From contig JAOUKT010000002.1 in NCBI GenBank assembly GCA_029882395.1, positions 50,165-114,164 of the forward strand: a stretch of 64,000 bases of DNA, written 5' to 3'. The notes under the pieces were generated by a model that saw only the letters and a list, made by a program, of their open reading frames with translations, did no database searches and was not told the DNA's origin. Source of the stretch: Gammaproteobacteria bacterium. Its GTDB lineage: Bacteria; Pseudomonadota; Gammaproteobacteria; SZUA-229. Positions 52,065-54,717 of this stretch are shown here, piece by piece; within the stretch, counting starts at the first letter, position 1; every line of letters starts with the position of its first letter. Made by a program: the position numbers and the translations under genes.

Positions 52065-52535
52065 TCAGCCTCGAGCTGGATCCAGTTGCTCGGCCCTGAG
52101 TTTAGAGGCAAAAAAATCATCCCCGTCTTCGGGGTCAATTTCTTTGCCGTCTTTATCGATCAAAGGCAGGTCTGATTCATTCCAGCCACGCAGTCCTGTT
52201 TTCAGTGAATGTATTTTCTGAAATCCCATCAATTGCATGGTACGGGCAGCCAGCAGGCTGCGGTTGCCTGACCGGCAGATGACCAGTATTTCATTTTCTC
52301 TACCGGCGGCTAATTCAGGAATGGTCTCATCAAAGTCGTATTCACAGCAGGTTTCGAGCACGCCGCGTGGAGCGAGTATTGAATTTTCAACGTGCATGGT
52401 ATCGTATTCATGGGGTTCACGAACATCGACTAGAATGAGCTCTGGGTTGGCTAACTGCATGTCTTCAACATCCCATGGAAACACTTCATTAACGTGTTGT
52501 TTGCAGTCTTCAATCAGGTCATTAAATCGTTTCAT
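52065..52535 (-). CDS. Single-domain rhodanese-like sulfurtransferase
   Basis: Active-site loop ICRSGNRS. Confidence 0.8.
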   Translation of the reverse strand: MKRFNDLIEDCKQHVNEVFPWDVEDMQLANPELILVDVREPHEYDTMHVENSILAPRGVLETCCEYDFDETIPELAAGRENEILVICRSGNRSLLAARTMQLMGFQKIHSLKTGLRGWNESDLPLIDKDGKEIDPEDGDDFFASKLRAEQLDPARG

Positions 52536-52560
52536 TGTCGATAGTGTCTATGTTAGAGGA

Positions 52561-53214
52561 TTAAGTTGTCGATTTGTTATAACGCAGGCCTTTTTCCACA
52601 GCGATAACGGCGGCTTCGACTCGTGAATGGATATTGAGTTTTCTTAAAATGGCTTTTACGTGTAATTTGACGGTGCCGTCTGAAATGCCCAAATTACGGG
52701 CAATGACTTTATTGCTTTGGCCTTCGGCTAGTAAGCTGAGAATTTCTGTTTCGCGGGGCGTTAAATCGGCAAAGGCGGCATCGACATTGCTTTCGGCTGA
52801 TTTACCCTGTGCCATCCGGGTCAGTACATCGGTCATGTTCTGGGCGACTACGTTTTTGCCTTTGACGATATCACGCAGGGCACCTACCAGCTCATCGGGT
52901 TCCATGTCTTTTAGCAGGTAACCTTGTGCTCCACGATTTAAGGCTTCGCGCAGATCCTGTTCTTCATTTGAAGTGGTGAGGATGGTGACAGGGATATCAA
53001 TATTGTTTTCACGAATTTTGCTGAGAATATCGAGGCCGCTATTATCGGGCATGCGCAAATCGAGCAGGATGACATCAGGCTTTTGTTCCTGAGCCAGTCT
53101 TATGCCTTCGTCACCATCGGCTATGGCCGCTATCACTTCAATGTTGCGTTGCTCAAGCAGTCCCTGGAGGCCGACCCGAAACAAGGCGTGATCATCTATC
53201 ATTATTACACGCAT
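52561..53214 (-). CDS. NarL/LuxR-family response regulator
   Basis: REC (VIMIDDHALFRVG...VILLDLRMPDNSG) + LuxR HTH (LTPRETEILSLLAEGQSNKVIARNL). Confidence 0.9.
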   Translation of the reverse strand: MRVIMIDDHALFRVGLQGLLEQRNIEVIAAIADGDEGIRLAQEQKPDVILLDLRMPDNSGLDILSKIRENNIDIPVTILTTSNEEQDLREALNRGAQGYLLKDMEPDELVGALRDIVKGKNVVAQNMTDVLTRMAQGKSAESNVDAAFADLTPRETEILSLLAEGQSNKVIARNLGISDGTVKLHVKAILRKLNIHSRVEAAVIAVEKGLRYNKSTT

Positions 53215-53259
53215 GAATTTGAAACCCGTTGTGGTTTGTATTGAGCCGCTATTTTCAAT

Positions 53260-54717
53260 TTAGGCTGTGGCCCCCAGATTAATTTCTGGTTCGTCATTGT
53301 AATGAAAATTGACTTCGATGCGAGTGCCTTCTTCCGGGTCGCTCTCCAGGTCCAGTTCGCCACCCAGGTGTTTGGCGCGTTCTTTCATGATGGTCAGGCC
53401 GATGTGTTCGCCTTTGTGGCCGCTGCTTTTTTGCTGCTCAAAGCCTTTGCCATCATTCTCAACCAGAATGCGGAATTCGCCGTGGATATCAGCGTGTAAC
53501 AGTACGCGGACGTTGTTGGCCGAGCTGTGTTTGCGAATATTGGTGAGCGCTTCTTGTACTATTCTATATATATGCATTTCCATATTGGCTGGCAGGCGTG
53601 CGTTATTCCATTCATTTTGTAGCAAGATATGAATATCGGTTTCTTTGCGAAATCGTGAGATCAGCTTTTCAATGCTGTTCACAACACCCTGCTCTGCGAT
53701 AGGGGTGCGGCAATGTGCAATCAGTTCGCGCAAGTCGGTATACGCCTCGTCAAGACTGTGCTCAACCTGCTCAATGCCATGAATCGACTGGTATTCACCA
53801 CTTTGCTGTAAGGTTTCGTCCAGCACCCGAACCTGAAAGCGAAGGCTTGCCAGAGTTTGCGCCAGTGAGTCGTGCAGTTCATTGGCAATCATGGTGCGCT
53901 CGTGCATCACCAGTACACGGCGGGCCTTTTGCTCTAGCTGGGTTTTTTCAATCGCAGTGCCTAGGTGACTGCCGATTAGCGACAGCAGGTTTTGCGTATC
54001 CTGGCTGATAAAATGATCAGAAGAGCTTACAAAGAGGTTGTAAACACCCACTACTTTATCCTGAAAGCGCAGCGGTACAGCGATGTGGCCGGCGTTAGTG
54101 TTATCCAGCAAATTGTGACCTATGGCTTTTTGGCAAGGTGCTGTGCTGTTGATAATGCGGATCTGGCCGCCTGATATCACACTGCCGCAGATGCTGCAGT
54201 CGGCAGGCATGTTGCGCTCATGTTCTACGGCCTCAGCGGAGAGCCCGATGCTGGCAATTAAATCCATGGTGCCGTCATCATTTAATAAACGAACGGCGGC
54301 GGCATCAGCATTCACAATGTCTTTTAAAATGTGAACAAAGCGACTGAGCAGGTCTTTGACATTGCTGGCAGCGTTAATATTGGTGGCAACGTCATAAAGA
54401 ATTTCAAGTGAGCGGGTTTGCTGTTGAAGTTCGCTGGTATCAATGGATTCAATCCCGGGTGTAGGGTGTGTTTTGTAATCATTGTTTAAGTAGGGATCGG
54501 CCTTATGAAACTTGATCAGCCATAATAATCGGGCGCCAACACTAAAGGCTGCAAGCCATGCCAGTGCATAGATAAAGTAGACGAAAGCAGAGACGGTATC
54601 GACAGCATTTATCCAGAGGGTGCTGAAAAGCAAAATGAGTAAGCTGAACAAAAGCGAAAACAGTAAATTTTGACAGTTTTGGTTTGTGGATTGTTTTGAA
54701 GCTGCATTATCTGACAT
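53260..54717 (-). CDS. Sensor histidine kinase, NarX-like HisKA_3 type, with membrane anchor and Cys-containing GAF domain
   Basis: TM helices, GAF-like region, H-box IANELHDSLAQTLASLRF, HATPase. Start set at the internal Met MSDNAASK. Confidence 0.8.
   Translation of the reverse strand: MSDNAASKQSTNQNCQNLLFSLLFSLLILLFSTLWINAVDTVSAFVYFIYALAWLAAFSVGARLLWLIKFHKADPYLNNDYKTHPTPGIESIDTSELQQQTRSLEILYDVATNINAASNVKDLLSRFVHILKDIVNADAAAVRLLNDDGTMDLIASIGLSAEAVEHERNMPADCSICGSVISGGQIRIINSTAPCQKAIGHNLLDNTNAGHIAVPLRFQDKVVGVYNLFVSSSDHFISQDTQNLLSLIGSHLGTAIEKTQLEQKARRVLVMHERTMIANELHDSLAQTLASLRFQVRVLDETLQQSGEYQSIHGIEQVEHSLDEAYTDLRELIAHCRTPIAEQGVVNSIEKLISRFRKETDIHILLQNEWNNARLPANMEMHIYRIVQEALTNIRKHSSANNVRVLLHADIHGEFRILVENDGKGFEQQKSSGHKGEHIGLTIMKERAKHLGGELDLESDPEEGTRIEVNFHYNDEPEINLGATA

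Follow-up and report, generated by a model that had tools for sequence, protein, structure and literature searches.

The stretch of DNA analyzed here (the window, 64,000 nucleotides (nt) in length; all positions are window positions unless a locus with an L number is named) ends with a reverse Dsr (rDsr) gene cluster. Directly upstream of dsrA, and divergent from it, lie three genes on the minus strand that encode a sensor histidine kinase, a response regulator of the NarL family and a single-domain rhodanese. Kinase and regulator probably form a two-component activator circuit that is dedicated to dsr and carries a co-expressed sulfurtransferase with it. The functional tie to dsr is well supported because both synteny and cis-element evidence point to it. 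To our knowledge, almost nothing has been learned about the control of reverse-Dsr expression outside Allochromatium vinosum, and we know of no dedicated transcription factor assigned to it. The genes at the locus and the promoter-like element of the kinase operon are:

52065 to 52535, minus strand: single-domain catalytic rhodanese, 156 amino acids (aa), PF00581 (E 4e-15, 56.5 bits)
52561 to 53214, minus strand: NarL-family response regulator, 217 aa, Response_reg and GerE matches (REC and helix-turn-helix (HTH))
53260 to 54717, minus strand: sensor histidine kinase, 485 aa from ATG, with GAF_2, HisKA_3 and HATPase_c domain matches
54750 to 54779, minus strand: promoter-like site of the kinase operon (TAGATA-18-TATATT with TG), within a clade-conserved block and covering TTG 54768
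55215 to 63576, plus strand: dsrABEFHCMKL, the presumed target operon, with the dsrA start at 55215; it fills the rest of the window

A sequence-only reading of this DNA had described the trio as lying on the minus strand, divergent and upstream of dsr, with 45 bp between kinase and regulator, 25 bp between regulator and rhodanese and 446 bp between kinase and dsrA. Orientation and both intergenic gaps are exact, as are the assignments of the products: the kinase has two hydrophobic helices as membrane anchor, a Cys-bearing GAF domain (C174-S-I-C177-G...C195) and a HisKA_3 transmitter, the regulator matches Response_reg and GerE and is 44% identical to Escherichia coli NarL, and the rhodanese matches PF00581 with an intact active-site loop. 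The distance to dsrA needs correction, as it was counted from an in-frame TTG at 54768. This upstream start was rejected. The close homologues of the kinase are all 485–490 aa in length and their first residue is the equivalent methionine. In an alignment of the intergenic region of five clade members, conservation drops just upstream of ATG 54717 and resumes in a block containing the TTG, and the sole promoter-like site on the minus strand, TAGATA-18-TATATT (54779 to 54750), is located in this block and covers the codon. The kinase therefore starts at ATG 54717, and the spacer between kinase and dsrA measures 497 bp.

Linkage of the kinase-regulator pair to dsr clusters

The distribution of the system was assessed in two samplings. 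A kinase-alignment scan with one genome per GTDB species yielded at least 80 loci from Thiohalomonadaceae, Thiohalobacter, Thiogranum, Thiohalophilus, Thioalkalispiraceae, Ectothiorhodospiraceae, Acidiferrobacterales and unnamed Gammaproteobacteria; 73 of the loci listed have enough upstream sequence to judge the linkage to dsr. The second, independent sampling was a metagenome scan seeded with DsrL and blind to the kinase, in which 33 listed loci extend at least 2.5 kb beyond dsrR. All locus counts given here are among the matches listed in these two scans (GTDB species representatives; metagenomes). The window's own clade is not among the matches listed in either scan, and its relatives were found via exact-protein look-ups. 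Gene order was read by tblastn with the window proteins and with the Dsr proteins encoded further downstream in the same genome.

In the kinase-seeded sampling, dsrN-dsrR is located directly upstream of the kinase and on the same strand in 69 of the 73 species loci, four of which carry an insert of ~1.5 kb. In the DsrL-seeded sampling the kinase follows dsrR in 24 of the 33 loci and is missing from that position in nine. The usual order, all on one strand, is dsr...L-J-O-P-N-R, kinase, regulator and, in part of the loci, rhodanese, and the regulator adjoins the kinase in 99 of 108 kinase loci. The same genes are dsr-linked in dozens of species, and the arrangement in the window is therefore not due to chance. 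A lack of conservation of the pairing in related genomes had been named as the finding that would speak against the module; the pairing is conserved. The stop codon of dsrR lies a median of 540 bp ahead of the part of the kinase that aligns from residue 94 onwards. Assuming about 150–165 N-terminal residues upstream of the aligned part, the gap between dsrR and the kinase in these tail loci can be estimated at ~45–90 bp. Such a small gap suggests co-transcription with dsr, and in most lineages the dsr transcript probably has the trio at its 3' end.

The position at the head of the operon is a different matter. Among the loci examined, a kinase head-to-head with dsrA is found in the window's clade only, and no minus-strand kinase upstream of dsrA is present among the DsrL-seeded loci listed. 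Four relatives with 81–92% identical kinases share the head arrangement together with the flanking priA. The sequence-only reading had considered a two-component system at this position unusual: this applies to the head position, which is clade-specific, whereas the system as such is no unusual addition but a common tail component of gammaproteobacterial rDsr clusters.

In most of the DsrL-seeded loci the divergent operon upstream of dsrA consists of genes for a TauD-like dioxygenase, a 62-aa open reading frame (ORF) product, a Cas6/Cmx6-family protein, a DsrC/TusE-like protein and a 66-aa ORF product; it has this orientation in L087, L090, L092, L127 and others. In the window's genome, dsrL is followed past the window end by dsrJOPNR and then, on the same strand, by the TauD, 62-aa ORF, Cas6-like and DsrC-like genes (L081 9062–11592, just beyond the window end), and there is no tail kinase. 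A single inversion reaching from the dsrA promoter to dsrR would be the simplest history of the head arrangement, because the TauD-Cas6-DsrC-like module, normally upstream of dsrA, now follows dsrR. No remnants of the inversion breakpoints were found, and at the present divergence the kinase-proximal half of the intergenic region has no similarity to the ancestral TauD promoter beyond the palindrome described below. The DsrC/TusE-like protein of the flanking operon is devoid of both C-terminal cysteines. The Cas6/Cmx6-family protein (PF09559, E 1.6e-55; TIGR02807, 123 bits at a cut-off of 98.85) places a Cas6-family gene inside a sulfur-oxidation cluster; no CRISPR context was seen in the fetched loci, in which no systematic search for it was made.

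Regulator and dsrA control region

Within the clade, hardly any variation occurs in the 200 bp upstream of dsrA, which hold the following elements:

55009 to 55026, no strand assigned: perfect 18-bp palindrome CTATCCCATATGGGATAG with the core TATCCC-N4-GGGATA, a candidate operator with its centre ~76 bp ahead of the inferred transcription start of dsrA
55040 to 55063, no strand assigned: proximal inverted repeat GAACACCC-N8-GGGTGTTC, which holds the conserved CCCCATRGGTAGG and is centred near -42
55082 to 55087, plus strand: inferred -10 box of dsrA, TAAAAT, the position being kept as TAGACT, TAAACT or TAAAAT in other lineages

Palindromes at the dsrA promoter had already been pointed out in the sequence-only reading, and the comparison across lineages reveals a conserved, NarL-like candidate operator. 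Nearly all gammaproteobacterial loci sampled have TATCCC-N4-GGGATA, with at most one to two mismatches, 180–250 bp upstream of the ATG of dsrA. The 2.43 Mb of fetched loci were searched for the palindrome at set mismatch limits, resulting in 28 matches at no more than one mismatch compared to 5.4 expected, and 24 of these 28 lie 130–250 bp upstream of the start of a dsr operon. Where a locus shows both the promoter and a tail kinase, the palindrome is found with at most three mismatches in 11 of 11 cases and with at most two in 10 of 11. Within the window, the dsrA site is the only one at up to three mismatches. Matches away from dsrA in the 2.43 Mb, which could have pointed to a wider regulon or to autoregulation, are no more frequent than expected by chance, and two of them coincide with the conserved PRGI codons of the rhodanese.

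The order of the elements is conserved as well. Counted from the palindrome, it reads across lineages as palindrome, ~17 nt, CCCCATGGGTAGGAT, ~22 nt and TAGACT, TAAACT or TAAAAT. The 7-2-7 consensus of NarL is TACYYMT-NN-AKRRGTA. If the palindrome is read in this form (TATCCCW-WW-WGGGATA), it departs from this consensus mainly at position 3. On its bottom strand, the second element reads TACCTAT in the window (55049–55055, within the proximal repeat), matching the NarL heptamer TACYYMT, and TACCCAT in other lineages. Upstream of TAAAAT no -35 box of the dsrA promoter is recognizable. A transcription start ~7 nt after the -10 box would place the two elements near -76 and -42, a geometry that suggests an activator-dependent promoter. 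Folding of the inferred 5' leader of dsrA is not significant (z = -1.5), and an Rfam scan of the whole window gave no matches. As further observations, an imperfect inverted repeat, CTAAGTTATTGA (54919–54930) and TCAATAGCTTAG (54947–54958), is located in the middle of the spacer between kinase and dsrA and is kept in four of five clade members, and L112 (5545–6024) carries a TATCCC-N4-GGGATA-type palindrome directly before dsrE, with no dsrAB between the flanking operon and dsrEFH.

The regulator scores 224.3 bits with the NCBIfam NarL model (NF007935), below the cut-off of 250, and by this measure it is NarL-like and not a NarL equivalog. Its predicted phospho-acceptor D52 aligns with D59 of NarL, and the recognition helix TVKLHVK aligns with TVKVHVK of NarL. 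NarL contacts its target through Lys188 and Lys192, and the equivalents of both are kept. The recognition-helix stretch GISDGTVKLHVKAILRKL hardly varies among 99 dsr-linked orthologues whose identity is otherwise 55–79%, and this invariance of the HTH implies a conserved DNA target. An unchanging reading head goes well with a palindrome that is conserved at a fixed site of the dsrA promoter, although binding of the one to the other, and activation rather than repression as its outcome, are proposed here from sequence comparison. The window encodes a second LuxR-type response regulator 12 kb away (39994–40635), which is 36% identical and has a different recognition helix. Further signaling genes at 12–20 kb distance encode a 1047-aa histidine kinase with periplasmic-binding-protein, PAS and GAF domains (33849–36992) and a hybrid histidine kinase (40644–42467).

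The palindrome might instead be the operator of another factor, such as the DsrC/TusE-like protein without C-terminal cysteines or another product of the TauD operon, with the two-component system controlling its own operon, the rhodanese or unlinked genes and being merely co-localized with dsr. Four loci have the palindrome and no adjacent two-component system (L100, L107, L120 and L123; their clusters end at dsrR), so that the operator could serve another factor, or the regulator is encoded elsewhere in these genomes; the latter is possible because four kinase loci are unlinked to dsr. Moreover, the DsrC-like gene is kept beside the dsrA promoter in most lineages, and DsrC was suggested to regulate the rdsr genes (Grimm et al., 2010, as cited in PMC4411801). 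However, in L142 and L143 the DsrC-like operon is present while palindrome and two-component system are both missing, the palindrome is built like a dimer site of the NarL/GerE type, and the invariant regulator HTH implies a conserved target while no other conserved copy of the palindrome occurs in the 2.4 Mb of loci. We thus regard control by another factor as unlikely. L160 keeps just one half-site of the palindrome.

Sensor kinase and rhodanese

The kinase was analyzed by domain searches, alignments and an AlphaFold model of moderate confidence (mean pLDDT 72.6). In the model, two N-terminal transmembrane (TM) helices (H13-38 and H44-70), separated by a loop of ~5 residues, form the membrane anchor; they are followed by a disordered linker (72–91), a GAF fold, a long DHp hairpin and a CA domain. 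The domain searches accordingly return a single GAF domain (residues ~118–257), HisKA_3 with H282 and HATPase_c. HAMP (PF00672) gave no match in the window kinase, which has a gap of ~50 residues opposite the HAMP of its ~550-aa relatives. Most relatives of the kinase are of this length and carry HAMP after TM2; it has been lost in the window's clade. Among solved structures, VraS and DesK, both HisKA_3 kinases, come closest in sequence and fold, along with generic GAF domains. As the kinase has neither a periplasmic domain nor HAMP, its signal must be cytoplasmic or intramembrane/membrane-proximal, as far as can be judged from its domains.

This bears on the reading proposed for similar genes, i.e., that a nitrate- or nitrite-responsive system of the NarX/NarL type ties dsr expression to the availability of electron acceptors (Baker et al., 2015). 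The best NCBIfam matches of the proteins are indeed NarQ, NarX and NarL, the degree of identity to NarL and the resemblance of the operator to a 7-2-7 site fit this reading, members of the family occur in denitrifying sulfur oxidizers such as Thiohalomonas denitrificans, and the proposal is already in print (PMC4411801). However, in a multiple alignment with E. coli NarX and NarQ the window kinase has no counterpart of the periplasmic four-helix sensor domain for nitrate: the periplasmic segment of ~120 residues with the P-box GSLRMQSYR is missing, and the ~5 residues between the TM helices stand in its place. The scores of 188 bits for NarQ and 136 bits for NarX are far under the cut-offs of 553 and 578, and only the transmitter, i.e., the C-terminal half, aligns to E. 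coli NarX, at 27% identity. Furthermore, it is dsr genes and a rhodanese that are conserved beside the pair, and not nar or nap genes. Membership of the kinase in the NarX/NarQ families was rejected on these grounds (no periplasmic P-box domain, no HAMP, scores far below cut-off), and the domain analysis argues against periplasmic nitrate sensing. A nitrate-responsive system is, in our estimate, very improbable.

Within the GAF domain, attention is drawn to the cysteines of the motif C174-S-I-C177-G...C195:

54133 to 54189, minus strand: GAF cysteine codons, Cys177 at 54187–54189 and Cys195 at 54133–54135, in the model helices H175-183 and H193-199

In the model, Cys177 and Cys195 appear to lie in the region of the GAF fold that commonly binds ligands. 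Both are invariant in an alignment of 20 kinase sequences, and family-wide C177 is found in 135 and C195 in 137 of 145 kinases (~93%). C174, the first Cys of CSIC, is variable and usually Arg across the 145 family members, and the window's clade has CxxC...C. The Cys-bearing GAF motif, pointed out in the sequence-only reading, is not shared by all dsr-linked kinases: besides the variability of C174, both C177 and C195 have been lost in at least eight dsr-linked kinases (L087, L088, L092, L105, L109, L127, L131 and P0117), among them the lineages nearest to the window by regulator (71–79%) and by DsrL (75–77%). Sensing of thiols or polysulfide via these cysteines therefore stays speculative. 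In the Cys-less L087, L088, L092 and L127, which have tail kinases, and in P0117, regulator and rhodanese still stand beside dsrR, and the sensor domain of the P0117 kinase is no longer matched as GAF by Pfam.

The same residues are relevant for the question whether the kinase is a general sensor for redox state, O2 or NO of the DevS/DosT-DevR type, in which a cofactor of the GAF domain (haem, or a metal or Fe-S cluster held by the cysteines) would tune dsr to the redox state. The GAF-HisKA_3-HATPase_c architecture is the same, the kinase family profile matches the DevS GAF domains weakly (E about 3e-4), and the cysteines are situated in pocket-forming helices, as CxxC...C in the window's clade. 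Against a sensor of this kind stand the weakness of the DevS match itself, the single GAF domain and membrane anchor, both unlike DevS, and the Cys-less orthologues, which remain linked to dsr. We consider such a redox sensor to have little probability. Finally, the kinase might sense sulfane sulfur (persulfide or polysulfide) directly, which would make it the first histidine kinase to do so: C177 and C195 would be bridged or persulfidated, perhaps loaded by the rhodanese, and the regulator would then activate rDsr via TATCCC-N4-GGGATA. The kinase has no homology to the CstR, SqrR and BigR repressor families, which are persulfide sensors with a Cys pair. This complete scheme is tentative and rather doubtful, and the same low confidence applies to cysteine-based sulfur sensing by the kinase as such.

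The rhodanese has an intact six-residue active-site loop, C87-R-S-G-N-R, in which Cys87 is invariant among 51 orthologues, while Cys64 is 96% conserved. By its PF00581 fold and the Cys heading a six-residue loop it can be classified as a catalytic single-domain rhodanese (GlpE/PspE-type). The best solved relatives are 6mxv (tandem rhodanese-like) and 1qxn, deposited as 'sulfide dehydrogenase', which we take to be the polysulfide-sulfur transferase Sud of Wolinella. The presence of a rhodanese does not follow the GAF cysteines: the Cys-less L087 and L127 have one, and the Cys-bearing Thiohalomonadaceae are mostly without. The rhodanese most likely delivers sulfur to the cytoplasmic Dsr proteins, which is the conservative reading; that it generates the signal of the kinase is possible but unsupported.

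In the surroundings of the rhodanese gene some further features were observed. A GC-rich hairpin with a T-run in the 3' part of its ORF (52121–52134) is terminator-like on both strands and may be due to chance. The spacer between priA and the rhodanese gene (51243–52064) comprises 822 bp, is AT-rich and ORF-free, and is large in relatives, too (815–2075 bp). It contains two direct repeats of 58 nt (51393–51450 and 51755–51812), each of which holds a perfect DnaA box TTATCCACA on the minus strand (51408–51416 and 51770–51778); the window has three such boxes compared to 0.64 expected. The spacer could be a DnaA-titrating or regulatory site, or the home of an unannotated RNA.

Proposed circuit and comparison with known systems

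In the circuit that we favour, the membrane-tethered kinase would read a cytoplasmic or membrane-proximal cue via its single GAF domain, autophosphorylate at H282 and pass the phosphate to D52 of the regulator. The phosphorylated regulator dimer would bind to TATCCC-N4-GGGATA at about -76 and to the proximal heptamer element at about -42, thereby activating a dsrA promoter that has a -10 box and no usable -35 element. The co-expressed rhodanese, with its catalytic Cys intact, would most likely mobilize sulfane sulfur for the cytoplasmic Dsr relay and could also make the signal of the kinase. In most lineages the location of the trio at the 3' end of the dsr operon would result in positive feedback. 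In the window's clade, inversion of dsrA-dsrR would have left the trio divergent and upstream, with a promoter of its own.

Several observations weigh against this circuit. Next to the four loci described above that have the palindrome and no adjacent two-component system, four kinase loci are located away from dsr (L033, L044, L065 and L079), in heterogeneous neighbourhoods that gave no informative pattern. The transcription start of dsrA, from which the positions of the elements are counted, is deduced from a -10-like hexamer alone. The loss of both C177 and C195 in dsr-linked kinases belongs here as well. Moreover, a rhodanese is found beside the kinase-regulator pair in only ~50 of 95 loci and is therefore an accessory and not an obligate part. 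Of the dedicated module for regulation and sulfur transfer for which the trio had been named a candidate, the regulatory part is the best reading, supported by synteny and the conserved NarL-like operator, and the sulfur-transfer part has to be reduced to an accessory.

The analysis turns a loose metagenomic remark into a concrete circuit with a named regulator, a candidate operator and a promoter of the activator type across many lineages. Carriers of the system include the cultivable Sulfurivermis, Thiohalomonas, Thiogranum and Thiohalobacter. The inversion in the window's clade represents a natural experiment, in which the genes of the regulatory system are uncoupled from read-through of dsr, and the Cys-less dsr-linked kinases lend themselves as a natural contrast for finding out what is read by the sensor domain. 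If the signal were a sulfur species, the kinase would add a class of sensor that is new to sulfur-cycle biology and biosensing. If sulfane sulfur were sensed directly, a 'stored-sulfur available' circuit would be common to a large part of the marine and sediment sulfur-oxidizing Gammaproteobacteria.

Genes for a narX-like sensor and a luxR-like regulator were reported in the rdsr clusters of the gammaproteobacterial bins SG8-11, -15, -45, -47 and -50 from estuary sediment, and a coordination with nitrate reduction was proposed that needs verification (Baker et al., 2015, Microbiome 3:14, PMC4411801). This is the sole mention found in searches of the full-text literature, in which no functional study of a dsr-linked kinase-regulator pair was found. 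As in the window, a kinase and a LuxR-type regulator are attached to an rDsr cluster of uncultured sediment Gammaproteobacteria. The reported pairs, like those in nearly all loci examined here, are situated inside the cluster or at its tail and on its strand, whereas in the window the pair is divergent from dsrA, HAMP is lost and a rhodanese follows; the likeness is one by description.

The system of the window has the HisKA_3 transmitter, the REC and GerE domains, a near-identical recognition helix and a candidate 7-2-7 operator in common with NarX-NarL and NarQ-NarP of E. coli. It differs in the kinase, where the short central module of NarX/NarQ has given way to a complete GAF domain bearing a Cys pair and both the P-box sensor and HAMP are absent, and in its partners, which are dsr and the rhodanese instead of nar. 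DevS/DosT-DevR of Mycobacterium tuberculosis similarly combines GAF, HisKA_3 and HATPase_c with a NarL/LuxR-family regulator and senses in the cytoplasm, as is suggested for the window kinase. DevS has a tandem GAF with haem and no membrane anchor, in contrast to the single GAF of the anchored window kinase, and the sequence match is weak. NreB is a soluble PAS-domain kinase that carries an Fe-S cofactor, whereas the window kinase is a membrane-anchored GAF protein. In Bacillus licheniformis MW3, NreB-NreC is a NarL-family system in a sulfur-oxidation cluster that was reported to respond to sulfide and to boost sqr and pdo transcription (PMC9918477). It is a precedent for control of sulfur oxidation by a NarL-family two-component system, albeit with sqr/pdo as targets and in another phylum.

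For the rhodanese, the closest parallel by type is found in Allochromatium vinosum, where Rhd_2599, TusA and DsrE2 form a cytoplasmic sulfur relay. Sulfur is transferred from DsrEFH to DsrC in a further step (PMC3397948). Like the window rhodanese, Rhd_2599 is a single-domain catalytic rhodanese tied to the delivery of sulfane sulfur to Dsr. Its gene stands with tusA and dsrE2, whereas that of the window rhodanese is operonic with the two-component system, and the likeness is one of type. As kinase-regulator pairs in rdsr clusters are already on record (Baker et al., 2015), nothing categorically new is present at this locus: the module of the window is a rearranged member of a widespread, already noticed and functionally uncharacterised dsr-linked two-component system.

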